A stretch of 32,000 nt of DNA from an uncultured Erysipelotrichaceae bacterium. GTDB lineage: Bacteria > Bacillota_I > Bacilli_A > Erysipelotrichales > Erysipelotrichaceae. The notes under the pieces are model-generated. The model was not told where the DNA came from, ran no database searches, and saw nothing but the letters and a program-made list of their open reading frames with translations. This document shows positions 14,321-29,233 of the stretch, in pieces. The position numbers and the translations under genes are program-made. Position 1 is the first letter of the stretch; every line of letters begins with the position of its first letter. The stretch spans positions 210,001 to 242,000 of the forward strand of contig OW818668.1 in assembly GCA_942493105.1 (NCBI GenBank), given 5' to 3'.

Positions 14321-15163
14321 TTATTTACGCAAATTCTCAATTTTGCTTGGAGCTCTATCAAGTAACAGTTGTCCAATCTTTAGCTTTTCATATCCAGAGT
14401 CTATCAGTCTCTGATTATTCTTATTAAGGCCTTCTGTAATTTCGTCGATCCCCTTTAGATGATAATCTATAGAAGCAATGACATCATTAATAACAGGCAG
14501 AAACTGATTAATTTTCAATATATCTCTCACATTTTCTACTCTGCTTTTAAACTCGTTAGCAACTATTAAATAGGCATCCTTGCCTGAAATCTTGTAATTA
14601 TCGACTGTTTCATTAAAAATCCAAAACTTAGCAATCACTTGTGGTACCCTATCCAAATAGTCCGATATAAATGCTTCTTCACCATCAATTGAATAAGTTG
14701 CCTCAAGCCTAGTTATGTTCCCTCCAAGATCAGTAAGTATAAGCATTGTTTTTTGATTTTGACCATCAAAACTAAAATCAGGCAATTTTTCAAATGTTAC
14801 CATCACTGCTGTGCTATCAATGATCTTGTCAATAAACTGATCTGGGGTAAAAGTTTCCCCATAAGCAATTGATACTGGTTTCAGTATTGCATTAGGTTTA
14901 ATGGTATCCTTAACTACAACACTTAATGTTACTACACCCTTACCAGTTCCATATGAAACCACATAATCACCAGGAATTTCCATATTTGTTGGATTGTCAA
15001 TTTCCACTTTGCTTTTAGGTGAAACTACATAATCCAACGGACTAAAAGGTTCACCAGCCTCCAAAATGATGTTGCTTTGACTTAATTCAATTTTCTGTGC
15101 TACACAAGCTGAAATCGAAAACATAACAAGCATTAGCAATAAATAAGTAGATAAAGATTTCAT
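14321..15163 (-). CDS. Lipoprotein with two Ig-like (DUF5011-type pattern) segments (cassette ORF)
   Basis: MKSLSTYLLLMLVMFSISAC lipobox, repeated ..G(E)xFxPxxxV.. segments, GGAGGGGG RBS. Confidence 0.75.
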   Translation of the reverse strand: MKSLSTYLLLMLVMFSISACVAQKIELSQSNIILEAGEPFSPLDYVVSPKSKVEIDNPTNMEIPGDYVVSYGTGKGVVTLSVVVKDTIKPNAILKPVSIAYGETFTPDQFIDKIIDSTAVMVTFEKLPDFSFDGQNQKTMLILTDLGGNITRLEATYSIDGEEAFISDYLDRVPQVIAKFWIFNETVDNYKISGKDAYLIVANEFKSRVENVRDILKINQFLPVINDVIASIDYHLKGIDEITEGLNKNNQRLIDSGYEKLKIGQLLLDRAPSKIENLRK

Positions 15164-15290
15164 AATCCCCCTCCGTTTTATTCAGTTATATAGTTAGTAT
15201 ATCAAATTAACCACTACTAACAACGCGTATAATTTACATAAACAGAATTTGATTGCACTGAAAACTATATATATTAAGGAGTGCTTATTT

Positions 15291-15353
15291 TATGTATAGT
15301 CATTATTTCAGTCACATATGAATACTCAATTCGATTGTTTGCATGATTATCCC
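15291..15353. repeat. Module M copy 4
   Basis: tgtatagtcattatttcagtcacatatgaatactcaattcgattgtttgcatgattatccc aligns with 13178-13243. Confidence 0.65.
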
Positions 15354-15433
15354 ACGAAGCATTTTCAAAAATACTCCTCAGGAATATTGTCATCTAGGTA
15401 ATAAGCTCATCATATCTATATGATGATCTATTC

Positions 15434-15535
15434 ATTCACTCTGTCAATCCGGAACACTTAGGGAAGCGTTCTGTATGGACGAGTATCAACTTAAGGGCTG
15501 GGTGAGTTCGTGTCTTTCGTGATGACTGGACATGC
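15434..15535 (-). repeat. Decayed H repeat (subtype II-like)
   Basis: aagcgttctgtatggacgagtatcaac...cgtgatgactgg is collinear with copy 3 (gagcgttcatcgtgaccgagtaacaat...ccgtggtatg). The arms are no longer complementary. Confidence 0.35.
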
Positions 15536-15615
15536 AGTTTGAAGCACTAGAATTATTATGCAGTATGCAAAACAAATGATATACATTAACAATACAGACT
15601 GATCACTTCAATATC

Positions 15616-15644
15616 TTGACAACGGTCATGCATAGTGTAATTAT
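15616..15644 (+). promoter_or_regulatory. Sigma-A-type promoter candidate for the plus-strand SHOCT gene
   Basis: TTGACA (15616-15621), 17-nt spacer, TGT-AATTAT (extended -10-like). About 30 nt upstream of the GGAGG RBS. Confidence 0.5.
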
Positions 15645-15672
15645 GTCCTTAAACATATTTGGAGGTACACAC

Positions 15673-15936
15673 ATGAGTGAATGGGACTTTCTTTGGGGAT
15701 TAAAAGGAAAAGAACTAGAAGATGCTATGTCAACTGGCATGGACCAATTTGATCGCGATTATTTAAGTAAATCCAAACATTTAAATAATGAGAATAAAGC
15801 TATAAATGAACAGCATAGGCTTGCGTTAAAAGCAGAGTGGGAAAGTCTCAAGCAACTAAGAGATAGTGGTGCCATAACAATGGAAGACTTTAGAATGAGA
15901 AAAAGAGCATTATTCCCAATCAAAAAGCAAAAATAG
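15673..15936 (+). CDS. SHOCT-domain small protein (plus-strand cassette ORF)
   Basis: The C-terminal LKQLRDSGAITMEDFRMRKRALF matches the SHOCT pattern. Start set at ATG 15673, 7 nt after GGAGG. Confidence 0.6.
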   Translation: MSEWDFLWGLKGKELEDAMSTGMDQFDRDYLSKSKHLNNENKAINEQHRLALKAEWESLKQLRDSGAITMEDFRMRKRALFPIKKQK

Positions 15937-16000
15937 AAACCGGTAGCCATAGAACACGAACATATACTCTCGTTGTTAGCGACATATTATCTTGAGTTCT

Positions 16001-16117
16001 TAGAACTCACCACAGCCTTTATATTCGCTCCAAGTTGAGCGTTCATCGTGACCGAGTAACAATATATTAGTTCTAGTAATCGAGTCATACGGTCGTCCGT
16101 TTAGGACCGTGGTATGA
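16001..16117 (-). repeat. H foldback repeat copy 3 (core subtype II, diverged arms)
   Basis: tagaactcaccacagcctttatattcgctccaagttgagcgttc...catacggtcgtccgtttaggaccgtggtatg. Confidence 0.85.
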
Positions 16118-16337
16118 TCAGTCTCATGCTCATACACCTTAACAATGAGCTCACTTAAAGTCAGCCTATTTCATTTATGCCAAATACAAATTTAGACTGC
16201 TTTTGTACAAGAAAATGACCAACTAACTTCAAATGTTGAATAAATTCCGTATGATATACTTGATGTGAAATTGCACCATTACCAATCTCATAATTATGAA
16301 TTTTGGAGTGCTTTTATCCAATAGCGGAGGAAATATC

Positions 16338-16607
16338 ATGACGACACTAGAATCATATTGCTTTAGAATCTACCATGAGATATATAAAAGAGAATTGAGC
16401 AATTATGTAAAGCAATGGACAGCAAAACACAACCATATTCCAGAATTTAAGTATGATTCTTGGAGTCGATACGCACAAGAAGAGGCACTAAACCAATCAA
16501 TAGAAAGAGTAATCCAAGAATTTCCATTAATTGATCCGAATTTGATTACAGAAACTATACGAAAAATCCACTTAGAGTGGGATTCAGATATAATTCTAGT
16601 TGACTAG
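16338..16607 (+). CDS. Hypothetical small protein (plus-strand cassette ORF)
   Basis: ATG 16338 lies 7 nt after GGAGGAAA. 89 aa, no family recognised. Confidence 0.5.
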   Translation: MTTLESYCFRIYHEIYKRELSNYVKQWTAKHNHIPEFKYDSWSRYAQEEALNQSIERVIQEFPLIDPNLITETIRKIHLEWDSDIILVD

Positions 16608-16635
16608 ACTTTAATTATTGTGTACATATAAAACA

Positions 16636-16701
16636 GATCTGAGTTGTCTTGTACTCATACAACTTTAGCATTGTGGCTCTACAGAAGACGACTTATACCA
16701 A
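16636..16701 (-). repeat. Module T copy with only the last few nt of H attached (H-less junction remnant)
   Basis: gatctgag + ttgtcttgtactcatacaactttagcattgtggctctacagaagacgacttataccaa parallels 31760-31823 but lacks the body of H. Confidence 0.6.
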
Positions 16702-16726
16702 GTTGTTGATTATTCAAACTACTCGT

Positions 16727-17134
16727 TTATTCTATTTTGACATCTTGCGCCAGTTTTGAAATCTGATCTGAAGTCACTTTTCCTTCACGAGCTAGACTAT
16801 CCAATTCATTCTTCGTCAAATACGCATCATTACACAATTCAAGCGCCTCATCATATGTCATCTCTACATAATCTTTTCTTTCGACAAAATAATTCTTTAA
16901 AATGAATTCTATTCCAAATACCTCACAAGCTAGTGTGATTACACCATTCTTGGCTGCGTTCTCAATGAACTCATTAATTGTCTTACCTTGGCTCCGATAC
17001 AATTCGATGCCATCCTCATCGACTGGGTCTCTTGTTAAAAATGTCGCTATTAATAATTCTGCCACATCTTCATCTCTCATGATCATATATAATATGAACT
17101 TTTGTAAACTGAACACCAATTCTGATTTTGGCAT
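16727..17134 (-). CDS. Hypothetical cytoplasmic protein (cassette ORF)
   Basis: Start set at ATG 17134 (MPKSELVF), 6 nt after AAAGGGAG. 135 aa, acidic and helical. Confidence 0.55.
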   Translation of the reverse strand: MPKSELVFSLQKFILYMIMRDEDVAELLIATFLTRDPVDEDGIELYRSQGKTINEFIENAAKNGVITLACEVFGIEFILKNYFVERKDYVEMTYDEALELCNDAYLTKNELDSLAREGKVTSDQISKLAQDVKIE

Positions 17135-17305
17135 TTCATCTCCCTTTACTTGATGGTTCTCTCTCAACCTATATTGAACACGACTCCTTTTCAACGACAT
17201 TTAGAGCTAGTGTCAATTTATGTGCTTTTCTGCAAATATCTAAATACCCAACCTGGTTTGCCCACTACGTTGTTCCAAAGTATAATGGAATGGTCCATCT
17301 TTGAA

Positions 17306-17351
17306 CTCATACAACTTAACATTGTGTCTATACAAAAGTCGACCTATTCCA
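17306..17351 (-). repeat. Module T copy
   Basis: ctcatacaacttaacattgtgtctatacaaaagtcgacctattcca. Confidence 0.75.
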
Positions 17352-17521
17352 GTTTTACTGGTTGATCCTTATAAAGGAACTTTATAAGGTATATCAGACC
17401 ATCTCTATTACGTGCAGTTTGACTTTGGTTGATTCCCATGTACTCTTAACCAACTTTATCACCTGATCTCATCAAACCTTACCAAATAAGAAAAATCCTG
17501 TATGTACAGAAGTCAATAAAG

Positions 17522-18301
17522 CTAAATATCAACTAGATTAATCATATTAAGGTTTGTACTATCATATAGATACTCACCATGCCGAACAATCAATCTTCGA
17601 ATACATCGATGCAACCAAGCTTCTTCTATTTGGCTAAGTGTATGTTCTGATTTCTTCTCCACTTTTCTAGCTGAGAACTCGTCACCTTTTACAGAAGTCC
17701 AAGTCCCTAGTTGGACAAGAATAGCAGAATCAATACACAATTTTTGCCCTATTCGGTTTCTTCTAGGTGTTCGGCCACTAATGTTATCTCCGAACTCATC
17801 TTCAATGACCGTCAAATAGTAATACCCAAAGTTTAGAATGTGTTCTTTACCTTGTAATACTCCCATATAACGTTCAATTACTTTTTGAAGTTTGATGTTT
17901 GTTTTAAAATTCGCGTGAGCTATTGGAAATTCTCTTAAATTTCTTATCGCATAACCTTCGCATGTAATTGTCGATTTACAGTAAATGTTGCCTGAGAGGT
18001 ATTTAATATTTGGATCGAGTTCTTCATAAACATATCCCTTTTTATAGAATCTTATACTATCTTCGCCATACTCGAGGTCATACTGATAATACCAATCAGC
18101 GAAAATAGAGTTTGCATTTGCCTCAATCTTCGCAACGTTCTCAAGTGGTTCTTTTAGATGAATGATTATTCTTTTGTCTTTAAAAGTTATTGTAAAATCC
18201 GGATAATCGAAAGACTTTTCTATAAATGATTGGATATTCACTGTCTTGTTAACATCAATGTCATAAAGAATGCTTTTAATTCTTGGTTTACTTTGGTCCA
18301 T
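17522..18301 (-). CDS. Hypothetical protein, 259 aa (cassette ORF)
   Basis: Long uninterrupted ORF co-oriented with the array. Weak RBS, no family recognised. Confidence 0.55.
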   Translation of the reverse strand: MDQSKPRIKSILYDIDVNKTVNIQSFIEKSFDYPDFTITFKDKRIIIHLKEPLENVAKIEANANSIFADWYYQYDLEYGEDSIRFYKKGYVYEELDPNIKYLSGNIYCKSTITCEGYAIRNLREFPIAHANFKTNIKLQKVIERYMGVLQGKEHILNFGYYYLTVIEDEFGDNISGRTPRRNRIGQKLCIDSAILVQLGTWTSVKGDEFSARKVEKKSEHTLSQIEEAWLHRCIRRLIVRHGEYLYDSTNLNMINLVDI

Positions 18302-18402
18302 TTAGTTACTCATTTTCGAAATGCTTCCTGTTTTATATAAAAGTTCTGATTTGCTCATATGCCCCGATACACTCTTTTAAGAGTAGCAAGCTTGCCCCTA
18401 AT

Positions 18403-18459
18403 TTGTTCCAAAACAGAATAGAGTTTTAAGCTCGACAACAACCCTATATATTCAGTTCT
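18403..18459 (-). repeat. Leader module C copy 1
   Basis: The minus strand reads GAACTGAATATATAGGGTTGTTGTCGAGCTTAAAACTCTATTCTGTTTTGGAACAA. It matches 28022-28078. Confidence 0.7.
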
Positions 18460-18566
18460 TAGAACTCACCACAGTCTTCGTATTCGCTCCAGGTGGAGCA
18501 TTCACCACATTCTAGTATGAACGCTTAGGCACCCAATCGTGTCCCACGGTCGTCCGCTTAAGACCT
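18460..18566 (-). repeat. H foldback repeat copy 4 (3' arm truncated/decayed)
   Basis: tagaactcaccacagtcttcgtattcgctccaggtggagcattc...ttaggcacccaatcgtgtcccacggtcgtccgcttaagacct. Confidence 0.85.
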
Positions 18567-18577
18567 TGTTTTAAGTG

Positions 18578-18625
18578 CTCATTCAAGGTTAACATTGTGC
18601 CTCTACAAAAGTCGACCTATTCCAA
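18578..18625 (-). repeat. Module T copy
   Basis: ctcattcaaggttaacattgtgcctctacaaaagtcgacctattccaa, 38 nt after the stop of the FRG gene. Confidence 0.8.
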
Positions 18626-18663
18626 TAGTTAACCTAATCCACTTAGATACTTATAAAATAGTA

Positions 18664-19569
18664 CTAGAAATTCAATAATTCACCTTTATTAATATTTGAT
18701 ATCAAAATATATTCAGCAATGCTTTGAATATCTGGAAAAAGTCGTAAGTTAGAGTAGTTCATATTATCCAATAGTCGAAGCAATTCATTTCTTACTTTCT
18801 TGTCAATTCTTATTGTTATATATTCTGCTTTCTTAATAATTTCATTTTGCGCATCCTCATTAAGAATTGAGCAAGGGATACTGAAAAGCCCTTGTTGCGC
18901 TATAAGTCGAGGGTTGCTAGCGTTGCACTCATAAAATAATAATCCATCAGGATTTGTCTTAACATCCTCAATAATTCCTATGTTTTTTAGTTTTGTGCTC
19001 CTTGCTTTCAACTCTTCAATTAGACTCTGTTTATTTATAATGGACTTTATGAATTTATGGTACTCTTCAATGAATTCAGACCCAGATTGCATATTACCAT
19101 GAGTCAAACCACCATAAGATCTGTTTATTAAAATGTGATCATCTAGATTGGTATAGAATAATCTATAACCATCTAAAGGACATTCACTTTGGTTGATAGC
19201 AAAATAAAGAGCAACAAAAGGATCACGTGTCCAGTCAACAAGTCTTGTAGGGAGTCCAAAATGCTGTGCATATGCCACTATATCTAGTAGATCAAGGTTA
19301 CCGTTTAGCATTGCTGAAGCATATTTTTTAAAGTCATAGAGTAAAGAAAACTCTAAATATGATACATCCTTGTACTGAAAATTTGACGAACGATTATTTA
19401 CTCTATTGATTGTTGGCTTTAATTGGCTTAAATCTGATACACCACGAAAAACTAATTTGCGATTTTTTGCAGCTAACAAAAGGTGGTTTAATAACAAATC
19501 TGCTGTTGTATATTCTTCTTGATTGAAAACATTCCCAGAATGTCTTTCTGCTTTTGAATGATTATTCAT
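18664..19569 (-). CDS. FRG-domain protein (cassette ORF)
   Basis: Contains VFRGVSD, AQHFGLPTRLVDWTRDPFVALYFA and NPRLIAQQGLFS, the FRG-domain signature blocks. AAAGGAG RBS. Confidence 0.75.
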   Translation of the reverse strand: MNNHSKAERHSGNVFNQEEYTTADLLLNHLLLAAKNRKLVFRGVSDLSQLKPTINRVNNRSSNFQYKDVSYLEFSLLYDFKKYASAMLNGNLDLLDIVAYAQHFGLPTRLVDWTRDPFVALYFAINQSECPLDGYRLFYTNLDDHILINRSYGGLTHGNMQSGSEFIEEYHKFIKSIINKQSLIEELKARSTKLKNIGIIEDVKTNPDGLLFYECNASNPRLIAQQGLFSIPCSILNEDAQNEIIKKAEYITIRIDKKVRNELLRLLDNMNYSNLRLFPDIQSIAEYILISNINKGELLNF

Positions 19570-19693
19570 ATAAGCTCCTTTTTGAATTATACTTCTGTTA
19601 CAAATTTAAACTATTGGTTGGTAATGTATACAAAACTGAATGATATACCCCATAAATTGTTTTAAAATAGAATGTTAATGATCCATATTTTGT

Positions 19694-19775
19694 ACTTAAA
19701 CAAGTTTATCATTTCGACTCCATAATAGTCGATTTATTCCAATATTGCGTTTCATCAAAAGCTAACTTATTCCAA
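19694..19775 (-). repeat. Module T copy plus a second partial T start abutting the HNH gene stop
   Basis: One copy is tcatttcgactccataatagtcgatttattccaa (19694-19742). A partial copy, ctaacttattccaa (19761-19775), sits 3 nt from the stop at 19779. Confidence 0.6.
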
Positions 19776-19778
19776 GGA

Positions 19779-21269
19779 TTAACTTGTTTTTCTATATCTT
19801 CTTCTAACTAAACCTCTAGTTTTGATTTCATTTACTAAAGTCATAGGACTCATACCAAAGGATTTTGCTACTTGTAAGATTGACAATTCTGATGACATAT
19901 ATGATTCAACTGCCTCACTATATTTTTCTATTAAGAGAACATTCCTTTTCTTGTCAACCTTATGCGGTCTATAAATCTGTCTATTTAGACCTTTCTTTTT
20001 TAGTTCACTACTTAGTAAGTTCTCGCTAATATGATGTTGCTTTGAAACTTCACTTCTTGAGAGTCTAGTTGACATGTAATGCTGAATTGCTGCTTCAAGT
20101 CTAATTGCCTTATCCTCTTTATTAATCTCTATTGTCTTAGGTTTGTCTACTCTAATTTTGGTGTTAATAGCTTCAGGATATTTCTTTCGTACATAGTTAT
20201 ATACAGTAGCAAAGCTTACTCCAAACTCTTCAGCAACTTCCTTATAAGATTTTGAAGAGCTCACATAGCTAAAAGCCACATTTTCAATGAATTTCTCATC
20301 TCGTACTCTTTTGTTTCTTTCACTATAAACAAACTTATTATTATCTTGATCTTTCACAGTTTCAACTTGAGAGGATTGGAATGAATCATCTTCTCGGTCT
20401 GTTAGATTATCTATTTCTTCGCTCTTATTAAGTTGGCTTTTCTTTACACTATTAAATACAGTTACACTGCTTATTCCAAACTCCTTCCCTACTTGCTCAT
20501 ATGTTAATGATGAATTCAAATATCTTTGTTTTGCGGATTCAATTACAGATTCATCTATAAAATTTGGTCTACCTAACTTCTTTCCATTCTTCTTAAGTTC
20601 ATTTAGTGAGTCTGATGTTCTATTTGAAATATTACTTCTCTCAAGTTCTGCAATAATATTAATAAAATGATTCACTATGTCCTGAACAATATCATAATTT
20701 ATTCTTTCCATAGTATTTACAGAATCAGTTTTCCATTTAAATAATCTTTTGTAGAACATTCTTAACAAACCTGCTGTAGTTGAGATGCTAACATGTGTAT
20801 GCCCAAAATGGAATATTAACTCAAGGTCACCAAAGAATTCATCTATTGATTGATATACTTTATCGACTTGATTTGGCGATAAACTCAAAGAATATATATC
20901 GTCAACAAACTCATTTCCATAAATTCTTTTATACTCGTCCAACCCTTTGTATGTCCAAAAATTATCTCTTCTCTTGCTACTGTATGCATTTATCCAATCC
21001 CACATTATTTCGTTATCTTTAACATCAGGGGCTTCAATATGACAAGATTTACATAACAGTACATAGTTGCTTGGGATATCTAGTCCTCCCATAGCAAAAG
21101 GTATAATATGACATTTCTGAATTTTGCGATGTTTTGTAGACACTTCTCCACATCTCCAACAATGACTACTTGCTTTGGCAATCTCAAGATGCGTGTATAG
21201 CCACTCTATTTTATCAGTCCAATATGAACTAATGTAAACCTCAGTTGTTTTTTGATTATTTCTTTTCAC
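19779..21269 (-). CDS. HNH endonuclease fused to a resolvase-like linker and four helix-turn-helix repeats
   Basis: The HNH core is CWRCG..CHIIPFAMGG..NYVLLCKSCH. It is followed by ELERSNISNRTSDSLNELKKNGKKLGRP (serine-recombinase helix-E/GRP-linker-like) and four HTH units (LTYEQVGKEFGISSVTVFN, KSYKEVAEEFGVSFATVYN, LSRSEVSKQHHISENLL, LSILQVAKSFGMSPMTLVN). Start moved to GTG 21269, 5 nt after AAAGGGGGA, because the track start at 21344 lies inside repeat H. Confidence 0.8.
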   Translation of the reverse strand: MKRNNQKTTEVYISSYWTDKIEWLYTHLEIAKASSHCWRCGEVSTKHRKIQKCHIIPFAMGGLDIPSNYVLLCKSCHIEAPDVKDNEIMWDWINAYSSKRRDNFWTYKGLDEYKRIYGNEFVDDIYSLSLSPNQVDKVYQSIDEFFGDLELIFHFGHTHVSISTTAGLLRMFYKRLFKWKTDSVNTMERINYDIVQDIVNHFINIIAELERSNISNRTSDSLNELKKNGKKLGRPNFIDESVIESAKQRYLNSSLTYEQVGKEFGISSVTVFNSVKKSQLNKSEEIDNLTDREDDSFQSSQVETVKDQDNNKFVYSERNKRVRDEKFIENVAFSYVSSSKSYKEVAEEFGVSFATVYNYVRKKYPEAINTKIRVDKPKTIEINKEDKAIRLEAAIQHYMSTRLSRSEVSKQHHISENLLSSELKKKGLNRQIYRPHKVDKKRNVLLIEKYSEAVESYMSSELSILQVAKSFGMSPMTLVNEIKTRGLVRRRYRKTS

Positions 21270-21295
21270 AATATCCCCCTTTATGTCTCTAGTTA

Positions 21296-21412
21296 CATAA
21301 CGCACCACGGTCTTTGTATTCGCTCCAGGTGGAGCATTCCCCATAGTCTAGTATGAACGCTTAGGCACACCCCATCGTGTCTCACGGTCGTCCGTTTAAG
21401 ACCGTAGTCAGC
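21296..21412 (-). repeat. H foldback repeat copy 5 (L-linked)
   Basis: cataacgcaccacggtctttgtattcgctccaggtggagcattcc...ctcacggtcgtccgtttaagaccgtagtcagcg. Confidence 0.9.
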
Positions 21413-21847
21413 GTGGTCTTTTCTCAGTCAAACTGCTCTTGTTATTCAACTTTCAACATCATTCTATCTCATTCATTCTACCCTATTTTAAAGCTATATA
21501 TATCACTAATTATGTGTTCATTTTCTTATTATTTCGGTTCTCTTTTAAAAAGAAATCTCAAAATCCGTTACACTTTTGTTACACTTGGACAAAGTGACCT
21601 GCAAAAAAGCCTTATAGAATAAGGCTTCGTGAAGTCATGGTGCCATCACCGAGAGCAGAATTTATGCGTATTTTTAGGTGTCAGTTATGATAAAAGGCTT
21701 AAAAAACAAGCCTTTTAGTCGATTTTTATCGAATTAAGTGTGATTAAATCGGAATTATATAGGTAATCCGTTACACATTTGTTACACTTCGATGTGATCA
21801 AACTGTCCACCAACAATCGTCTGCAAAGGGACTTCATTTTTCTTAAC
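21413..21847 (-). repeat. Module L copy 2, long form (two GTTACAC boxes 203 bp apart) plus T-like tail
   Basis: Near-identical to 24990-25440. Boxes are at 21562-21586 and 21765-21789, with internal hairpins at about 21606-21630 and 21693-21717. Confidence 0.85.
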
Positions 21848-22342
21848 TTACCTCATTCTTTTGCGTTTCACTTTATCGACTTGATAAAATAGTGAAATCA
21901 GAAAAATGGCATATGAAATTCCAATCAATGGTCGAAACACAAACCATCCGGTGATTATCCATAAACTAGAAAAAATCACAGTTGCTAAAAACCCAAGTGC
22001 GAATCCCCAGTATGGAAGTAACAGATTTAACGGAACAATCCCCAGCTTATCAAGGTAAAACATTCTCCATTTTCTTTCTCCTCTTTTCTTATAGTTCTCT
22101 TTATCGTGTTTTCTCAGATATTTTGAAATTAGTGGAAAGTATAGTGTGTGTCCTCCTACATAATGAATTACTGGAAACGCAATAATGAGCATTATTATTA
22201 TGAAAAATTCTTCTAGGCTCATCATCTTACTGTTACCACGCTTTCTGATTAAGTTCAAAGTCAAATGATATTGGTCTGCTTCGACTTTTATGGAGAGGTT
22301 TTGTCCCCACCCATCACTATTCCCATTATCCCTATTAATCAT
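21848..22342 (-). CDS. Small membrane protein, about 3 TM (cassette ORF; start uncertain)
   Basis: The track start at 22342 lies in module B (MINRDNGN...). An alternative start, ATG 22225 (MMSLEEFF), lies just before the first TM helix. Confidence 0.6.
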   Translation of the reverse strand: MINRDNGNSDGWGQNLSIKVEADQYHLTLNLIRKRGNSKMMSLEEFFIIIMLIIAFPVIHYVGGHTLYFPLISKYLRKHDKENYKKRGERKWRMFYLDKLGIVPLNLLLPYWGFALGFLATVIFSSLWIITGWFVFRPLIGISYAIFLISLFYQVDKVKRKRMR

Positions 22343-22372
22343 CCGTTAGTCTACCTGCAATTCATCTATTGC
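22321..22372 (-). repeat. Module B copy 1
   Basis: Minus strand: GCAATAGATGAATTGCAGGTAGACTAACGGATGATTAATAGGGATAATGGGA. Confidence 0.7.
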
Positions 22373-22489
22373 CAGAACTCACCACGGTCTTCGTATTCGC
22401 TCCACATGGAGCATTCCCCACAGTCTAATATGAACGCTTAGGCACTGCCAATCGTGTCCCCAGTCGGCCATTTAAGACCGTGGTCTGAG
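22373..22489 (-). repeat. H foldback repeat copy 6
   Basis: cagaactcaccacggtcttcgtattcgctccacatggagcattcc...ccccagtcggccatttaagaccgtggtctgag. Confidence 0.9.
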
Positions 22490-22574
22490 TCAACATTACC
22501 TCAAGAAATCAAGTCTCTCAACTTGACATTATGAAGTCACTAATAATTTCATAACATTTTCTTTTTCTCATGTT

Positions 22575-23312
22575 TTATCTCAATTTACAAATTTTATATA
22601 TGAGTTCATGAATAATGAAGATAATCAATCCAGTCGTAAGAATCCAGTTTGTGACTGTTATTGTGTTTTGCTGAGTATCAAAATATGATACTAATATAAA
22701 AACTACAACAGATACACATAGATATGTTTTAAACGTAAATTCTGAGAAGTAGTCTTGCTTTTTCAATGGGACATCTCTATCAGAAATGTAATTTTTCATC
22801 CCTCTAAATCTATGCCACGTTATCCTATTGGTTCTGTGCAGAATTTTCATTTGTAAAATTAGTTCTATAAAACTGGACAAAAAGAGCATAACAACAAAGA
22901 ATATCAATACATAAACTTTTGTAATAGTGAACTCAAATAGAACAAGCTCAAATGCCTTAATCCAGATTATAAAAAGGAAGATCATGGTTAATAATTCTAG
23001 TGCTTGCAGATATTTCTCAAGCATCTTCAAGGTCATGACATCTCTTGGTTCTTGGTTCAGCAAGTTATTCGTTAAGTGCGATGCAACATCAAGAATGAGT
23101 AGATACTTAACAAACACTAAAATAAATAACCCTGCAACTAACAACAATATCACAAGATACTTTGCTAATGCATCAAGCTTTAATACATCTTCTAACGAAA
23201 ACGCAACAATCAAAATTATCGCGAAGTTTAGGAAGAGAAGCAGATTTACTTTCTTTATCTCAATACCGAGCTCCATTTGCTTTTCTTCCTCTATGACTGT
23301 TAATTGTTCCAA
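22575..23312 (-). CDS. Polytopic membrane protein, 245 aa (cassette ORF)
   Basis: TTG start 5 nt after GAGGAGGGG. Multiple hydrophobic helices, no family recognised. Confidence 0.65.
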   Translation of the reverse strand: MEQLTVIEEEKQMELGIEIKKVNLLLFLNFAIILIVAFSLEDVLKLDALAKYLVILLLVAGLFILVFVKYLLILDVASHLTNNLLNQEPRDVMTLKMLEKYLQALELLTMIFLFIIWIKAFELVLFEFTITKVYVLIFFVVMLFLSSFIELILQMKILHRTNRITWHRFRGMKNYISDRDVPLKKQDYFSEFTFKTYLCVSVVVFILVSYFDTQQNTITVTNWILTTGLIIFIIHELIYKICKLR

Positions 23313-23430
23313 AATTCCCCTCCTCTTTCACCCAGTAATGATCGGTTTTGGTTTGCTTAATACCTAAATAGTAAGTTGGTCTGTTCCAACTTTTGTGGGG
23401 ATCTTTCGGATGATCTTGATTATTATTCCC

Positions 23431-23478
23431 ATTATCCCTTTTCTTCATCTATTAGTCTACCTTCAATTCATCTAATCT
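23431..23478 (-). repeat. Module B copy 2
   Basis: Minus strand: AGATTAGATGAATTGAAGGTAGACTAATAGATGAAGAAAAGGGATAATGGGA. Confidence 0.8.
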
Positions 23479-23597
23479 CAGAACGCACCACGGTCTTCGT
23501 TTTCGCTTCATGTGGAGCATTCTCCGCACATCTAGTATGAACGCTTAGGCACTATCAATCGTGTCCCACGGTGAGTTTGCCAAGACCGTGGTCTGAG
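23479..23597 (-). repeat. H foldback repeat copy 7 (loop allele GAGTTTGCCA)
   Basis: cagaacgcaccacggtcttcgttttcgcttcatgtggagcattc...cccacggtgagtttgccaagaccgtggtctgag. Confidence 0.9.
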
Positions 23598-23633
23598 TCC
23601 GGATTGTTATGCGTATTCAACTGAAGATCTAGA

Positions 23634-24248
23634 TTACAAAAAGAGTATATAAACGATAGAAAATACAATCCAAACTGTGATCATTATAATCCATGGCTTA
23701 TCACTCTTTGAAGATTGTGCGATGGATGTGTCTTTATCCAGATTGGCAGCCTTAAAGATGATTTTATGCTGAGCTAGGACCACTACCACACTGATGATCA
23801 GATTAAGCAGATAAACTATGGAAAATAAAGTCGCACCTAAAATATAAACAGAAATCTCAACCGGTATATTCGGTTCAGTGTAAGAGTGTAAAATGGCGCT
23901 GAATGTGAAAAGCAAGATAGAGTACGTGATAAAGAGATAAGGTGGAATCAGAAGTAAGATCGAAATTAACTTTTTATTGGTGTTATTCTTAGCCACCATT
24001 ATGATATTCAAAAAAACAACAACAAATGCTAACATCAGTAACACAAGAATCAAATTATGGACGAAGAGTCCGAAGTCATTTAAAAAAGGGTGCTGATCAA
24101 AGATGATTCTAAACTCTTCTTGAAGTCCTAGATCATCCGGGAAAGGTACTAAAGCCGCGACTCCTGCTGAACCAATTAGCAATTGAAATGATAACTGAAT
24201 AATCGACAGGTCCAAGGCAATGGTATTGATCAGTGCTACTTTTTTCAT
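23634..24248 (-). CDS. Polytopic membrane protein, 204 aa (cassette ORF)
   Basis: ATG with the AAAGGGTGG RBS from leader A. Starts MKKV, then about 5 hydrophobic helices. Confidence 0.7.
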   Translation of the reverse strand: MKKVALINTIALDLSIIQLSFQLLIGSAGVAALVPFPDDLGLQEEFRIIFDQHPFLNDFGLFVHNLILVLLMLAFVVVFLNIIMVAKNNTNKKLISILLLIPPYLFITYSILLFTFSAILHSYTEPNIPVEISVYILGATLFSIVYLLNLIISVVVVLAQHKIIFKAANLDKDTSIAQSSKSDKPWIIMITVWIVFSIVYILFL

Positions 24249-24320
24249 GTTACCACCCTTTCATTAAATGTCTTATCGAGTTTTATTCGACTCTCCCTAC
24301 AACCACTGCTGTTCTATTCA
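24249..24320 (-). repeat. Leader module A copy 2
   Basis: Minus strand: TGAATAGAACAGCAGTGGTTGTAGGGAGAGTCGAATAAAACTCGATAAGACATTTAATGAAAGGGTGGTAAC, followed by ATGAAAAAAGTA. Confidence 0.8.
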
Positions 24321-24439
24321 CAGAACGCACCACGGTCTTCATATTCGCTCCATGTGGAGCATTCCCCACAAGCTAGTATGAAATGCTTAGGCACAGGTAA
24401 TCGTGTCACACGGTGAGTTTGCCAAGACCGTGGTCTGAG
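24321..24439 (-). repeat. H foldback repeat copy 8
   Basis: cagaacgcaccacggtcttcatattcgctccatgtggagcattcc...cacacggtgagtttgccaagaccgtggtctgag. Confidence 0.9.
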
Positions 24440-24503
24440 TTAGTGTTATCTGAAGATCCAATAAAGTCTTGGACTTCACTTTTCTCTTCACCCCAAAAAC
24501 TAT

Positions 24504-24761
24504 TTACAAATTTACAAAATATTCAAATAAACGGGTGATGCTGTATGTGTATATTCCTAATGCAAACCCAATTTTGATAAGATCTTTCTCTCTCTGAAAT
24601 AAACCGCCAATCAACAAAGATGTAGCATATAATAAAGTGGAAACATTGAATAGCATTAAATATGGTTCAAAATCACTGAAATAAAATGTACCAACTATAC
24701 TTATACAAGCAACAATAATTGTCAATAATCTTAGTGTGAATACAATTTTCCTTTTTACCAC
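24504..24761 (-). CDS. Small membrane protein, 85 aa (cassette ORF)
   Basis: GTG start 8 nt after AGGGG. Contains 2-3 hydrophobic helices. Confidence 0.55.
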   Translation of the reverse strand: MVKRKIVFTLRLLTIIVACISIVGTFYFSDFEPYLMLFNVSTLLYATSLLIGGLFQREKDLIKIGFALGIYTYSITRLFEYFVNL

Positions 24762-24822
24762 AATTTATGACCCCTAACTTTCACTTTCTTGTTCAAGGAG
24801 TAAATCTTCATCAACGCTATCC

Positions 24823-24872
24823 TCATTATCCCTTTTCTATACCGGTTAGTCTACCATCAACTCAACTAATCA
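24823..24872 (-). repeat. Module B copy 3 (first ATG replaced by ATA)
   Basis: Minus strand: TGATTAGTTGAGTTGATGGTAGACTAACCGGTATAGAAAAGGGATAATGAGG. Confidence 0.7.
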
Positions 24873-24989
24873 CAGTACGCACCACGGTCTTCGTATTCGC
24901 TCCATGTGGAGCATTCCCACTCATCTAGTATTAACGCTTAGGCACATGCTATCGTGTCCCACGGTCGACTATTTAAGACCGTGGTCAGC
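24873..24989 (-). repeat. H foldback repeat copy 9 (L-linked)
   Basis: cagtacgcaccacggtcttcgtattcgctccatgtggagcattcc...cccacggtcgactatttaagaccgtggtcagcg. Confidence 0.9.
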
Positions 24990-25440
24990 GTTGTCTTTTC
25001 TCAGTCAAACTGCTCTCGTTATTCAACTTTCATCATCATTCTGTCTCATTCATTCTACCCTATTTTAGAGCTATATATATCACTAATTTAGTGTTCATTT
25101 TCTTATTATTTAGGTTCTCTTTTAAAAAGAAATCTCAAAATCCGTTACACTTTTGTTACACTTGGACAAAGTGACCTGCAAAAAAGCCTTATAGAATAAG
25201 GCTTCGTGAAGTCATGGTGCCATCACCGAGAGCAGAATTTATGCGTATATTTAGGTGTCAGTTATGATAAAAGGCTTAAAAAACAAGCCTTTTAGTCGAT
25301 TTTTATCGAATTAAGTGTGATTAAATCGGAATAAAATAGGAAATCCGTTACACATTTGTTACACTTTGGAATTGGCTATTTCTACCACTATGACATGCTC
25401 AAAGGATCATCGCATTTTCTCAATACACCACAGTTCGTAA
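24990..25440 (-). repeat. Module L copy 3, long form
   Basis: Boxes at 25139-25163 and 25342-25366, 203 bp apart. The sequence after the second box (ttggaattggctatttctaccactat) matches the flank of the single box at 13550-13575. Confidence 0.85.
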
Positions 25441-25520
25441 TCGCATTAATGAAGTACGGGGCACATTCATATATTGTTGCCGAATACACTGAATAACTTT
25501 GTCAAATAGATGAAATTTTA

Positions 25521-26057
25521 TTACCATTTGTAAGGAAAATACTTACTGACAAATTCAGAGAACGAATCCCCAACCGAGTCTAGATTGAAGTCATATAGAT
25601 ATAGATAAGCGATTGAGTTTCTCGTATCGGACACGGCAATCATCCCAAAATCATGGGGATAATCTCCATAGCCCTGATCATCACTGATGATCCTGAAATC
25701 AAAATCTCCGACACTAAAGGTTGTTTGGGGGAAAATTTGATCTGAGACATAGCTGTTGGGTTCATTTAGAAAATAGAAAGTATCATCCAATTTTGCCTTC
25801 TCATCCAGATAAGTATCCTGATCATACGTCACAACCAGCAATAGAGTATCCATCTCCCAAATAAAGATGATATCTATTCTGTAGTGATGATAAATATCTT
25901 TGTATTGAGGAAGTGAATCGATCTCAGGCATAACCGACTTCGATGATCCAGTATTTAGACGGTGCCATGAATAAGAAATTTCGCTCTTGTCTTGAAGAGG
26001 GCTGTAACAACCAGTTAATAGAATCAGAACAATGATTGAAAGAAATATATTTTTCAT
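25521..26057 (-). CDS. Lipoprotein, 178 aa (cassette ORF)
   Basis: MKNIFLSIIVLILLTGC lipobox, GGTGGA RBS. Confidence 0.7.
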   Translation of the reverse strand: MKNIFLSIIVLILLTGCYSPLQDKSEISYSWHRLNTGSSKSVMPEIDSLPQYKDIYHHYRIDIIFIWEMDTLLLVVTYDQDTYLDEKAKLDDTFYFLNEPNSYVSDQIFPQTTFSVGDFDFRIISDDQGYGDYPHDFGMIAVSDTRNSIAYLYLYDFNLDSVGDSFSEFVSKYFPYKW

Positions 26058-26312
26058 AAATCCACCATATCTTCATTATAAACACAAAGGAATCTCAATA
26101 AGTTGTGACTTTGTGTAAATAGAGTAAAAACACCTGTTAAGATGCTTCAGAATGCGCTGGGTTGATTGGATAATGAGATTTGAATTGATCCTTTCTTGAC
26201 ATTACAAGATCTTCGAGTTCCAAACAAATCCTCCATAGACTTCTATATTTATCTTGTTTCAAGGCTTATCTAGTCAAAATATTACAAAGGATCATATCAA
26301 TAAACCAGTTCT

Positions 26313-26430
26313 CAGAACGCACCACGGTCTTCGTATTCGCTCCAGGTGGAGCATTCTCGTTACACTAGTATGAACGCTTAGGCACACCCAATCGTGTCCC
26401 ACGGTCGTCCGTTTAAGACCGTGGTCTGCG
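26313..26430 (-). repeat. H foldback repeat copy 10 (close to consensus)
   Basis: cagaacgcaccacggtcttcgtattcgctccaggtggagcattctcgttacactagtatgaacgcttaggcacacccaatcgtgtcccacggtcgtccgtttaagaccgtggtctgcg. Confidence 0.95.
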
Positions 26431-26486
26431 TCAATATTCAACGAAAGTATTAGGAATATCTTATGTAACCACTTCCATTTAGTCAT

Positions 26487-26861
26487 TCACTTAAAAATAT
26501 TGTTTAATATACTTATAATCCTTGACTCAAACAATTTGATTAGTAGTAGATATATAAAAGATATGTACATACCTATGGTATTATCAAATTCAATCATAAA
26601 AAATTTCAGTACAAAAATAGTTAATATGGTCATTATGATGACTAAAATGCACAATGCAAACCCCATCCATTGAGGAACAACTTTTCTGAAAAAAGCTAGA
26701 AATCCACTTAATAACATTGATATCAATAACGATATTGATCCAAGAGTATAATTTAATCCAAGGTCCACATTAGAAAATACAAAAAAATAGAAAGCTAAAC
26801 CCAAAGCTAAAACCATTAAGATAGTTAGTATTAATTCAAATTTCGTTAATTTTTCTTTCAT
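26487..26861 (-). CDS. Small membrane protein, about 4 TM, 124 aa (cassette ORF)
   Basis: Hydrophobicity pattern. AGGA lies 8 nt upstream of the ATG. Confidence 0.6.
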   Translation of the reverse strand: MKEKLTKFELILTILMVLALGLAFYFFVFSNVDLGLNYTLGSISLLISMLLSGFLAFFRKVVPQWMGFALCILVIIMTILTIFVLKFFMIEFDNTIGMYISFIYLLLIKLFESRIISILNNIFK

Positions 26862-26922
26862 GATAATTATCCTATCTGGCCTTCCCCCATTACTTATTCC
26901 AAATCAGTATTAACTCTTTAAT

Positions 26923-27003
26923 CTCATTATCCCTTTTCTTCATCCGTTAGTCTACCTTCAATGCGATCATTTAGAGGCTCTACTATAAACAACCGCAGTC
27001 CAA
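26923..27003 (-). repeat. H-less junction: module B copy 4 fused directly to a T-like module
   Basis: ctcattatcccttttcttcatccgttagtctaccttcaatgcgatcat (B) is followed by ggctctactataaacaaccgcagtccaa (T-like), ending 3 nt from the stop at 27007. Confidence 0.6.
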
Positions 27004-27006
27004 TCT

Positions 27007-27174
27007 CTATTTCTGATTTTCTGAGAGTTTAACCAATGTATAGCACAAATAATTTATGCCCATAAAGACTATTGAACCACCCATAACTTCTGGGATTGGC
27101 ATAATCCAACCTGTAATAAACACACTCACAAACCATACCGCAAAACCAATAAGAAACACTTTAATTGCTTTCAT
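27007..27174 (-). CDS. Very small membrane protein, about 55 aa (cassette ORF; start uncertain)
   Basis: AGGAGGAT sits directly upstream of ATGATTATG. The second ATG, at 27174, has the better spacing. Two hydrophobic helices. Confidence 0.45.
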   Translation of the reverse strand: MKAIKVFLIGFAVWFVSVFITGWIMPIPEVMGGSIVFMGINYLCYTLVKLSENQK

Positions 27175-27261
27175 AATCATATCCTCCTGTTCATTCAAAT
27201 TGTACCGTTTATCCTCCATGTTTACTACACAAAACAGTGATTTTTGTTGCCTATTTAAGAA

Positions 27262-27586
27262 TGTTTTTTATAAATCCGTTACACTTTTGTTACACTTGGA
27301 CAAAGTTACCTGCAAAAAAGCCTTATAGAATAAGGCTTCGTGAAGTCATGGTGCCATCACCGAGAGCAGAATTTACGCGTATTTTTAGGTGTCAATTATG
27401 ATAAAAGGTTTAAAAAACAAGCCTTTTAGTCGATTTTTATCGAATTAAGTGTGATTAAAACTAAATAAAACAGGAAATCCGTTACACATTTGTTACACTT
27501 CGATGTGATCAAATTATCTATCAATAATCTTCCGCAAAGAGACTTCTCTCTTCTCAATACACTCCTGTCCCAACTAAAAAATAACC
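27262..27586 (-). repeat. Module L copy 4, partial: only the box-203 bp-box unit plus T-like tail, with no H and no left arm
   Basis: Boxes at 27273-27297 and 27476-27500. The interior differs from the other two copies at only a handful of scattered positions plus a more variable stretch just before the second box. The right flank resembles that of the 21.8-kb copy. Confidence 0.8.
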
Positions 27587-27979
27587 TTAACACTCTATCC
27601 TTTCCAAAATGCATAAAAGTTCTCTCGCTATCTGACGCAGTTCTTCCCAAAGCAAATGATTTTTCAATCCATTTAATGTCCAAAAATCTTCATCATATGT
27701 AGCACCATCCAAAGAAATATCGTGAAATTTTTTATCTATTTCTTTGTATAAATCAATCACATTATTGCTAATCATATTTTGATTAAACATATGCATGACA
27801 CCATTTTTTAAATCATTCCAAATCCAGTCACTAGCAATATCATTGGTTATATAGTCTTTGAGCATAGACAGCTGTTTATATTGCTCTTCATACGACAATG
27901 CTAATGTTTTAGCTTGTTCAATATAATAATCAATTTCATTTTTTCTGATTTTCTGAATTTCCTTTTTCTTTTTTATCAC
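27587..27979 (-). CDS. Hypothetical cytoplasmic protein, about 130 aa (cassette ORF)
   Basis: GTG 27979 lies 8 nt after GGTGGAGGA. The track TTG start at 28030 sits inside leader C. Confidence 0.5.
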   Translation of the reverse strand: MIKKKKEIQKIRKNEIDYYIEQAKTLALSYEEQYKQLSMLKDYITNDIASDWIWNDLKNGVMHMFNQNMISNNVIDLYKEIDKKFHDISLDGATYDEDFWTLNGLKNHLLWEELRQIARELLCILERIEC

Positions 27980-28021
27980 TTGATGTTCCTCCACCAGTAT
28001 GGAAATAGTCTGCCACCTAAA

Positions 28022-28078
28022 TTGTTCCAAAACACAATTGATTGTTTAACTCGACAACAACCCTTAATATCCAGTTCT
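28022..28078 (-). repeat. Leader module C copy 2
   Basis: Minus strand: GAACTGGATATTAAGGGTTGTTGTCGAGTTAAACAATCAATTGTGTTTTGGAACAA. Confidence 0.7.
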
Positions 28079-28196
28079 CAGAACTCACCACGGTCTTCGT
28101 ATTCGCTCCAGGAGGAGCATTCTCCACACTCTAGTATGAACGCTTAGGCACATGCAATCGTGTCCCACGATGAGTTTACCTAGACCGTGGTCTGCG
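28079..28196 (-). repeat. H foldback repeat copy 11 (sister of copy 12)
   Basis: Shares private variants with copy 12: ccaggaggagc loop, catgcaatcg, cccacgat, gtctgcgtca. Confidence 0.95.
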
Positions 28197-28203
28197 TCAA
28201 TAT

Positions 28204-28251
28204 ATTCATGCAGTCTAAATATCGTGTCATTACGGAAGTCGACCTATTCCA
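28204..28251 (-). repeat. Module T copy overlapping the 3' end of a CDS
   Basis: attcatgcagtctaaatatcgtgtcattacggaagtcgacctattcca. GGAATAGGTCGACTT encodes the C-terminal G-I-G-R-L of the 28230-28538 ORF. Confidence 0.8.
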
Positions 28252-28538
28252 CCATTCTTCTTAACATATTTCTCGATCTTTTTCATTTCTTTAATTGAAA
28301 TCTGTCTACCGCATTTTGGACACAAGAACTCGGTCCATATAAACTTAACATCTCCAAACATGTATCCATCTCCTCCTACAGAACTAAAATCGTACTCTTT
28401 TGCCTCTGGAGATTTGGAATTTACTATCTTGGAAACCTTAGTTTTGAATAATAAAGAATGACAGTCAGGGCAGTAATGCTTCTTACAGTTGACATAAAAT
28501 GGATTTTTCCATGTTCTCACGATGCTTTTAAATTTCAT
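28230..28538 (-). CDS. Zinc-ribbon small protein, 102 aa (cassette ORF)
   Basis: Contains CPDC and CPKC pairs. Start moved to ATG 28538 (MKFKSIV), 5 nt after GGAG, because the track start at 28646 lies inside repeat H. Confidence 0.65.
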   Translation of the reverse strand: MKFKSIVRTWKNPFYVNCKKHYCPDCHSLLFKTKVSKIVNSKSPEAKEYDFSSVGGDGYMFGDVKFIWTEFLCPKCGRQISIKEMKKIEKYVKKNGGIGRLP

Positions 28539-28597
28539 AATTGCTCCAAAGTTTACTCTTTTTCGTTGTTTCCCATAAACCACTACACTTCCATTCT

Positions 28598-28715
28598 TAG
28601 AACGCACCACGGTCTTCGTATTCGCTCCAGGAGGAGCATTCTCCACACTCTAGTATGAACGCTTAGGCACATGCAATCGTGTCCCACGATGAGTTTGCCA
28701 AGACCGTGGTCTGCG
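28598..28715 (-). repeat. H foldback repeat copy 12 (sister of copy 11)
   Basis: I count four differences from copy 11 over ~118 nt. Confidence 0.95.
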
Positions 28716-28756
28716 TCAGTGTAAACTTAGGCTCTCGACTAAACCCAATGCGGTAC

Positions 28757-29233
28757 TTATAACAATTTGATTGATTCGGATAATCTATGAACAAGCTTAT
28801 CAGGGAAAGCATAGTTCTTATGCCATGCCATTTGGTACATAGAGCCAGGATAATCTGAATTTAGTTGATTCAATGCTCGAAGTATTGCTCTAGCAAATCT
28901 GATTTGGGAAACGTTCCCTTGATAAAGAACCTCTTTATCAAAAGTCATCGTTCTTTCGTTATATAGGGAATAGATTACACTGATTGACACTTCCAGGTTC
29001 TCTTCGGAAATAGTCCATTGTACCTCTCCAGGTTCATTCATCCAAACAAAAGATCTTTCCTTTGAGCCTTCGCACATTAAGACAATAGCTATTGTAAAAT
29101 CGTATATAGCATCCGTTAAATAGGAAGAAGTTATTACTGTCTCTTTATCCACATCCTGTATTGTCATATCAAGCCAGCCATTTTGTATTGATATCTTGCT
29201 TATTGTGAATTGATTGTTCATTAACCCCATCAT
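28757..29233 (-). CDS. Hypothetical cytoplasmic protein, 158 aa (cassette ORF)
   Basis: Uninterrupted ORF. The start lies at the edge of module B copy 5 (AAAAGGGATGATGGGG). No family recognised. Confidence 0.55.
   Translation of the reverse strand: MMGLMNNQFTISKISIQNGWLDMTIQDVDKETVITSSYLTDAIYDFTIAIVLMCEGSKERSFVWMNEPGEVQWTISEENLEVSISVIYSLYNERTMTFDKEVLYQGNVSQIRFARAILRALNQLNSDYPGSMYQMAWHKNYAFPDKLVHRLSESIKLL

Follow-up and report, generated by a model that had tools for sequence, protein, structure and literature searches.

What is the 203-bp unit that recurs, bounded by two copies of a 25-bp box, in the 32,000-nt stretch of Erysipelotrichaceae DNA analysed here (the window), and how did it come to lie there? 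The original prediction took it for an independent inserted entity, in which the two boxes would be an attL/attR-like duplication produced by the insertion, and saw an ‘empty site’ at 13.4 kb. The box pattern AATCCGTTACACWTTTGTTACACTT has seven exact matches in the window, all on one strand (at 13525, 21562, 21765, 25139, 25342, 27273 and 27476), vs none in 100 shuffled versions, and the boxes are thus not due to chance. These matches form three pairs, each spaced 203 bp from start to start (228 bp when both boxes are counted), and leave the copy at 13525 single. The pairs foreseen at 21562/21765 and 25139/25342, the lone box of the 13.4-kb copy (13525–13549) and the further box-203 bp-box unit in another context at 27273–27500, whose downstream arm is unrelated to that of the other copies, were all recovered in this way; the predicted repeat length of 25 bp holds for the exact matches, the effective length being 25–26 bp. 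Each box consists of two direct GTGTAAC heptads set 11 bp apart (one helical turn), and its sequence is the same at every copy in the window and in other genomes.

Read on the gene strand, which is the minus strand for all the modules described here, the unit is composed of a box, an arm of ~110 nt with a bidirectional terminator hairpin, the 17-nt block TCTCGGTGATGGCACCA, a second terminator and a box; folding of this strand gave two strong hairpins, each followed by a U-run, and one of them was called as a terminator on the opposite strand as well. The larger stretch between the upstream ORF and the ~130-nt repeat H, named L, has the gene order F, box, M (110 nt), T (69 nt), box, D1 and H. 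In the 21.4-kb copy, box 1 (21765–21789; AAGTGTAACAAATGTGTAACGGATT, the ‘T’ variant) is followed by M (21656–21764, with the hairpin AAAAGGCTTGTTTTTTAAGCCTTTT at 21691–21717), the identity block TCTCGGTGATGGCACCA (21638–21654), a terminator copy (GAAGCCTTATTCTATAAGGCTTTTTT) with the conserved pre-box TGCAGGTCACTTTGTCC (21587–21637), box 2 (21562–21586, the ‘A’ variant), the AT-rich spacer D1 (21429–21561), formerly called the L left arm, and H (21290–21421). The second full unit lies at 25139–25366 (identity block 25215–25231), preceded by F (25367–25428), a module of ~62–65 nt with a small hairpin at its end that is always found upstream of box 1, and followed by D1 (25006–25138) and H (24867–24998). 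The third (27273–27500; identity block 27349–27365) leads through an alternative downstream arm, D2 (27211–27272), into a 70-aa ORF at 27007–27219 (ORF70). The short form F-box-D1 has a single box of the ‘T’ variant (13525–13549), with F (13550–13614) placed directly after the stop codon of ORF 13614–14039 and with D1 (13393–13524) continued by H (13253–13384) and a HAD hydrolase gene (12515–13123). The adjacency of L and H expected at 13385, 21413 and 24990 was confirmed, and H itself proved to be far more widely distributed, with 14 copies in the window.

Sequence conservation differs among these modules. The box-to-box segment is 94–100% identical among the three full copies and D1 (133 nt downstream) is 92–97% identical among the 13.4-, 21.4- and 25.0-kb copies, D2 being unrelated, while F (65 nt upstream) shows 59–76% identity between copies. 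In a four-region alignment, the single-box copy is collinear with the outer flanks of the full copies, as had been proposed, with a distant left side (62–69%) and a close right side (92–97%). By eye, an apparent shortened and degenerate H (ending in ATGTGCCCCGTACTTCATTAATGCGATTACGAACTGTGGTG) lies on the minus strand at 25430–25520, between the stop of ORF 25521–26057 and F, and the start of F resembles the 3′ end of H (GTGGTGTATTGAGAAAA vs GTGGTGAGTTCTGAGAAC).

The interior of the unit contains the 3′ end of a tRNA gene. The 16-mer CTCGGTGATGGCACCA, present inside every full unit (21638, 25215 and 27349), is the 3′ end of the tRNA-Thr(GGT) genes called by ARAGORN in other genomes (L005, L006, L014, L015, L019, L022–L027 and L034), and the 17-nt direct repeats of TCTCGGTGATGGCACCA (21638–21654, 25215–25231 and 27349–27365) correspond to the last T-loop base, the 3′ strands of the T-stem and acceptor stem and the CCA. 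When six units were aligned to three intact tRNA loci, homology began at TCTCGGTGATGGCACCA and took in the terminator hairpin, the conserved pre-box (TGATGGTCATATTGTCC), box and downstream arm. The terminator stem varies between genomes with compensating changes, while pre-box and box stay fixed. Box 2 of the 21.4-kb copy is of the ‘A’ variant, as after most of the intact tRNA genes examined (L034 has the T variant), and its D1 has homology to what comes after the box at some of the intact tRNA loci (L005, L022 and L034). The downstream box is therefore part of a ~93-bp copy of the tRNA-proximal region, and the upstream box belongs to the module F-box-M, which is the distal end of the preceding block.

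These results retain the att-like character of the structure and do not support its reading as an independent insert. The supposed independent entity has as its interior the last 17 nt of tRNA-Thr(GGT), a terminator and a pre-box, just as they follow the intact tRNA in relatives; its two boxes, belonging to different modules, are standing copies of a conserved, putatively protein-binding motif and not a duplication generated by a 203-bp insertion; and the ‘empty site’ at 13.4 kb is a paralogous position within the same array rather than an allelic one. A related reading, in which the unit would be a MITE-like non-autonomous transposable element with the 25-bp repeats as its target-site duplication, could draw on its small size, repetition, direct-repeat flanks and two flank contexts. 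However, the flanking repeat is the same at all copies and across genomes, which excludes a target-site duplication; a search for inverted pairs yielded none at the settings used, and hence no terminal inverted repeats; all copies share one orientation within one array; and the interior consists of a tRNA 3′ end and terminators. On this sequence evidence we regard the MITE-like reading as hardly credible and, by the invariance of the repeat, as already refuted. Other candidates were rejected as well: M with the tRNA fragment is not a decayed whole tRNA, the weak similarity 5′ of the T-loop being confined to ATCATA and TTCTG; for a 16-aa peptide or a small RNA, a ribosome-binding site is missing, and the hairpins are explained as terminators; and TGTAAC as an ECF-sigma −35 element lacks, by eye, a conserved −10 at the right spacing.

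The orthologous loci show where such a tRNA fragment comes from in relatives. A box scan of species-representative genomes led to Erysipelotrichaceae MAGs with the same unit and H repeats, in two of which an intact tRNA-Thr(GGT) gene with its terminator immediately precedes the box, and further loci were fetched with the membrane protein encoded upstream of the tRNA as query. The upstream synteny is common to them (acetyl-CoA hydrolase, abhydrolase, TetR, Maf, membrane proteins, tRNA), and at intact tRNA loci the box is directly followed by the array of cassettes and H repeats; in 10 related loci an array of this type begins directly after tRNA-Thr(GGT). As an example of occupied loci, L022 and L023 show the tRNA, T, the box, a D1-like arm, a 1936-aa RHS toxin, a small ORF, a full F-box-M-T-box-D3 unit and H cassettes. 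In L025, whose arrangement is that of L001, the tRNA and T are followed by an IS110-family insertion, the pre-box, the box, D2, ORF70 and a HAD hydrolase, and the distal part carries F-box-F-box-M, a decayed tRNA fragment with a decayed box, and a yhf-type operon. L014 has the tRNA, T, the box, D3, four H-bounded cassettes, a truncated M, a decayed tRNA fragment and a homologue of window ORF 1231–1917, and in L034 a D1-like arm follows tRNA, T and box. The IS110-family (DEDD) element sits exactly between the tRNA terminator and the pre-box (L025 10840–12580, and likewise at the left end of L001). Empty loci were found in two relatives of higher GC content, L028 (46% GC) and L032 (49% GC), which have the same tRNA and upstream synteny and a terminator of their own, with no box and no array; these are distant relatives (44–54% identity in the neighbouring protein), so they are not strain-level empty sites. 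In L032, a YCII gene just past the tRNA is 66% identical to window 4344–4697.

The distal ends of the arrays carry decayed copies of M with the tRNA fragment (L014 ~980–1010, L001 and L025), with decayed boxes after the fragments. In addition, L003 and L004 have in common H-ORF342-F-box-M-tRNA fragment and diverge immediately past CACCAT, into different terminators and downstream genes. Altogether, the attachment of F-box-M at the T-loop edge of the homology, the copies of the tRNA locus, these seams and the empty loci, each of them directly observed, fit a tandem accretion anchored at the tRNA. We consider it somewhat probable that the box-to-box segment is an internal attachment-site junction of an island anchored at tRNA-Thr(GGT), in which gene blocks are stacked sequentially. 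The position of the tRNA is here assumed from relatives: a tRNA scan found no intact tRNA gene in the window, and the array runs past the window end at 32000.

On the gene strand, such a junction would begin with F, box 1 and M with its terminator, as the distal end of the block upstream, and go on with the 17-nt block identical to the tRNA 3′ end from the T-loop, the tRNA terminator, the conserved pre-box with box 2, and the start of the next block (D), so that its second half, from the tRNA fragment through box 2 with D, would be a copy of what follows the intact tRNA at the head of the array. An incoming block would enter at the tRNA and regenerate its 3′ end, while the old tRNA 3′ end, terminator, box and downstream arm would be displaced inward, behind the newcomer's distal end (F-box-M), and repeated entries at the tRNA would leave a chain of junctions. 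A site-specific integrase acting in trans may have made these junctions, and the boxes may bind this integrase or its cofactor; their placement ~135 bp to the left and ~52–76 bp to the right of the tRNA identity block would correspond to the arm-type-site geometry of a lambda-type attP. At the single-box site at 13525, recombination between boxes would have removed M and the tRNA fragment together with one box, and the deletion between direct repeats that had been offered as an alternative is thus probably a better account of this site than an insertion. Accretion is further supported by the stretch at 27.2 kb (terminator tail/pre-box-box-D2-ORF70), which is 95% identical to the one downstream of tRNA-Thr in L001 and L025, so that a tRNA-proximal stretch of those genomes is separated in the window from the array head by several cassettes and by at least 4.5 kb. 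The HAD hydrolase, next to ORF70 in L025, comes last among the array genes of the window (12515–13123), behind the single-box junction. Against accretion at the tRNA alone, the blocks between ORF70 and HAD cannot all have come in there.

The repeated sequence extends far beyond an att core, over ~93 bp from the tRNA fragment to the box and over ~300 bp of box-D1-H at 92–97% identity in three copies, and this length makes homologous (Campbell-type) integration or segmental duplication a serious rival. No dedicated recombinase would then be needed: the junctions would stem from slippage and homologous recombination between portable repeats, these being H, the hairpins and the stretch that runs from the tRNA fragment over the box into D1, for instance by Campbell-type integration of circular DNA carrying the tRNA-proximal region, by unequal crossing-over and by short-repeat deletions, the boxes being conserved for another reason, e.g., as an operator upstream of a D1 promoter. 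Besides the long homology between junctions, this rival is favoured by a hairpin-to-hairpin deletion in L004 (2078–2207) that removed the tRNA fragment, which indicates that short-repeat deletions do happen inside these units, by the lack of a recombinase in every locus scanned, and by a TAGAAT −10-like element seen by eye in D1, which in L022 lies ahead of the RHS gene. However, the left edge of the tRNA homology falls in the T-loop, where integrases that target tRNA genes classically cross over, and F-box-M is joined there without exception. The operator idea is further weakened by L012, where the box precedes a convergent gene and has nothing to regulate, and by the promoter scan, in which D1 was not flagged. 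We therefore judge recombination by homology alone to be rather unlikely, though it deserves to be kept in mind.

The short forms raise the question of whether the box itself is the site of crossover. In such a site-specific system, which comes near the original filled-site versus empty-site view, blocks of the form D...F-box would insert at the box, F-box-D would be the normal junctions, and M-tRNA fragment-box would be one insert or an excisable minicircle. Variability among the occupied tRNA loci starts exactly at the 3′ edge of the box, the same box being followed by D1, D2 or D3, as expected for such a site; the D arm of the F-box-D short forms is not the same in the window, in L007 and in L013; a tandem F-box-F-box is present in L001; the upstream-type box variant is kept in all four short forms; and pre-box and box are conserved after another tRNA in L012. 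The short forms at L007 2910–2934 and L013 1997–2021 also mean that the 13.4-kb copy is not the only departure from the long form, and their recurrence in other genomes indicates that recombination at the box, site-specific or homologous, is recurrent. In contrast, the heptads are direct and not inverted, which differs from the core sites of tyrosine and serine recombinases; the predicted reciprocal junction, tRNA fragment-box-M, is absent among the units and loci compared; the tRNA 3′ end starting at the T-loop within the unit is left unexplained; the T/A variant is only loosely tied to its context, since L016 and L034 break the pattern (for which reason it was dropped as a marker of the crossover point); and the window and the scanned related loci yielded no recombinase. 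Crossover at the box is accordingly an unlikely explanation of the locus as a whole.

The place of the box in accretion at the tRNA, the reading that we prefer, is put in question by L012. In L012 (5191–5336, minus strand), tRNA-Thr(CGT) and its terminator are followed by the same pre-box and box and then by the convergent gene, with no array and no H; this genome has 41% GC, and its aldo-keto reductase is 88% identical to window 5174–6370. The occurrence of the box after a different tRNA where there is no array, together with the decayed boxes at distal ends, suggests that it may be a component of the landing site rather than an arm borne by the incoming DNA. Among tRNA att junctions, the unit is unusual in its ~93-bp repeat, its double-heptad boxes and the lack of a visible integrase.

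The surrounding array is a more unusual feature than the 203-bp unit. From ~13250 to the window end, diverse small ORFs, mostly ORFans or without a Pfam hit, follow one another on the minus strand with H in between, and thus at least 14 cassettes are separated by this conserved ~130-nt repeat, which is also found in several Erysipelotrichaceae MAGs. The 14 copies span 13253–31778 on the minus strand, with starts at 13253, 14090, 15995, 18454, 21290, 22367, 23476, 24321, 24867, 26307, 28073, 28592, 30849 and 31643. Each H includes three ACCGTGG heptamers, one of them inverted, and long blocks of conserved sequence; between heptamers one and two lie 12 nt that fall into two classes, TTAAACGGACG and TTGGCAAACTC. 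Predicted pairing reaches 93%; covariation is barely above that of shuffled controls, compensatory change is almost absent, and the 5′ strand of the long stem changes with no compensation. H as a structured RNA or as an attC site was consequently rejected, the pairing potential being present and the covariation not convincingly above controls, and no attC-type RYYYAAC/GTTRRRY boxes were seen by eye in the alignments at either end or on either strand. One cassette lies after box-D3 in L003 and after H in L014, and another is found in three different contexts (L004, L013 and L014), so that cassettes move independently of the seams at the tRNA level.

Several further observations concern the ends and the content of the cassettes. 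Just after the HAD gene, at 12410–12470 on the minus strand, GAGTGAGTTTGAGAACTGGATAATTAAGGTTGTAG resembles the 3′ end of H with its usual trailer, the rest of H being absent, and may be a hybrid end site; a complementary truncation occurs in L013, where H ends at GCGAATACGAAGA. A conserved cassette leader of ~40 nt, AGGTAGACTAAnGGATGAAGAAAAGGGATAAT, is located after H or after a box-D3 arm (window 22325–22353, 23431–23462, 24825–24853 and 26926–26957; L003 3184–3225) and gave TAGACT-17-GATAAT in the promoter scan; a second leader type, GGGTTGTTGTCGAG..., follows other H copies, and the leaders of the form AGGTAGACTAA...GGGATAAT are candidate transcript starts. In L022 (11151–16961) and L023 (6028–11838), the 1936-aa RHS/YD-shell toxin and its small ORF come first after tRNA-Thr and precede the full unit, and an RHS fragment lies ahead of a unit in L003 (13–1950). 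Such content suggests that many cassettes are perhaps orphan immunity or toxin-related genes. The array also holds an FRG-domain protein (18664–19569, minus strand), and its single direction is broken by two ORFs on the opposite strand (15616–15936 and 16296–16607), one with a SHOCT domain. At the other end of the window, ORF 38–1084 contains three tandem coding repeats of 357 bp on the plus strand (55–1035; 70–74% identical), with fn3 and MORN-like matches in the protein.

No Pfam hit to a phage integrase or other recombinase was obtained for the larger ORFs of the window and 60+ ORFs of the related loci, the sole exception being a sub-threshold Resolvase match in ORF521, and tyrosine and serine recombinases are lacking from the window, from the vicinity of the tRNAs and from those related array loci and flanks that were scanned, which speaks against junctions made by an integrase. 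ORF521 (19779–21269, minus strand), the first gene after the 21.4-kb L and H, combines an HNH nuclease domain with four tandem helix-turn-helix repeats; relating these repeats to the four GTGTAAC heptads of each unit would be sheer speculation. We treated ORF521 as cargo and not as the enzyme of the array, as its only homologue (41% identity) is itself cargo of an unrelated element of 28% GC (L021) with three tyrosine recombinases and none of the modules. Rfam gave no match for the whole window at the gathering score, nor for 13000–32000 at E ≤ 1, and viral contigs scanned for the box and for H gave no match. The box also had hits in Lachnospiraceae, Bacteroidales, Robinsoniella and high-GC contigs (L002, L008–L011, L017 and L018), which were set aside: they have no shared flanks, and about four 19-mers are expected by chance in the ~1.2e12 bases searched. 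In one of these, a Bacteroidales MAG (L008 4380–4510), iteron-like clusters of the same 11-mer (GTGTAACAAAA) form inverted arrays beside a 925-aa DUF5906 protein; they are probably unrelated to the box and show that the 11-mer motif can act as a repeated protein-binding site.

The array invites comparison with integrons, and a bolder explanation would make it a hitherto undescribed integron-like gene-capture platform of Erysipelotrichaceae at tRNA-Thr, whose recombinase would be encoded elsewhere. Box-M-tRNA fragment-box would then be the active head or landing site, H the recombination site of the cassettes, and the single-box junctions site-specific products, with the 203 bp leaving and re-entering as a circle. 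The long one-directional array of packed and mostly ORFan cassettes, the conserved structured repeat, the distinct head site (box and D) and the presence of one cassette after the head site in one genome and after H in another are all like integrons. In contrast to integrons, there is no IntI in the loci scanned (upstream of the tRNA lie genes for membrane proteins, Maf and TetR), H has no attC boxes and is conserved in sequence and not in pairing, and the array is anchored at a tRNA. The phylum of Erysipelotrichaceae is not known to have integrons, and we regard this explanation as improbable.

Closer parallels exist for tRNA-anchored accretion. In streptococci, ICEs and CIMEs accrete with internal att sites. 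As in tandem accretion at tRNA genes generally, an intact tRNA stands at the head (in relatives), partial tRNA 3′ ends are scattered through the island, older blocks appear to be pushed inward, distal copies are decayed and many blocks have no integrase. Unlike it, no integrase or remnant was found in any locus here, the repeat of ~93 bp is more than a tRNA fragment, and blocks are subdivided into single-gene cassettes by the ~130-nt H. The attP sites of lambda, HP1 and L5 have arm-type sites, in which the N-terminal domain of the integrase binds arm motifs flanking the core, and the unit resembles them in geometry, with ~230 bp in total, an asymmetric core position (~135 bp vs ~76 bp) and direct-repeat motifs at the outer edges; it differs from them in that the box is also present in single-box junctions that have no core and in that no integrase with an arm-binding domain was identified. 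The tycheposon islands of Prochlorococcus likewise grow by tandem accretion at tRNA genes, with partial tRNAs between stacked elements (10.1101/2020.12.28.424599). For the cassettes, the rAID-1 arrays of Bacteroidales are recombinase-associated arrays of immunity genes, between which lie repetitive sequences ‘reminiscent of integrons’, and their defining feature is a conserved XerD-family recombinase (10.1101/471110). The small-gene arrays with repeats and the RHS toxin at the head of L022 and L023, or as a fragment before a unit in L003, are like rAID-1, but the phylum is different, no XerD-type recombinase was found at the array head in the loci scanned, and an immunity role of the cassettes is putative, most of them having no Pfam hit. 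Membership in known classes is thus excluded for integrons by the lack of IntI and of the attC consensus, for rAID-1 by the lack of a XerD-type recombinase, and for MITEs by the invariant repeat and the lack of terminal inverted repeats.

Altogether, what had looked like a 203-bp element becomes a readable record of assembly, in which tRNA fragments mark the seams between gene blocks and so offer a means of delimiting and dating acquisitions in these genomes. The analysis also exposes an unannotated hot spot of Erysipelotrichaceae that carries, in relatives, an RHS toxin, probable immunity or defence genes (HNH-HTH and FRG) and many ORFans, and whose architecture has two levels, tRNA-box junctions and H repeats, a recombinase not being visible. 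Should an enzyme act here in trans, the region would represent a new cassette-capture system of Bacillota; if there is no such enzyme, the locus would be a clean example of island growth through homology alone.
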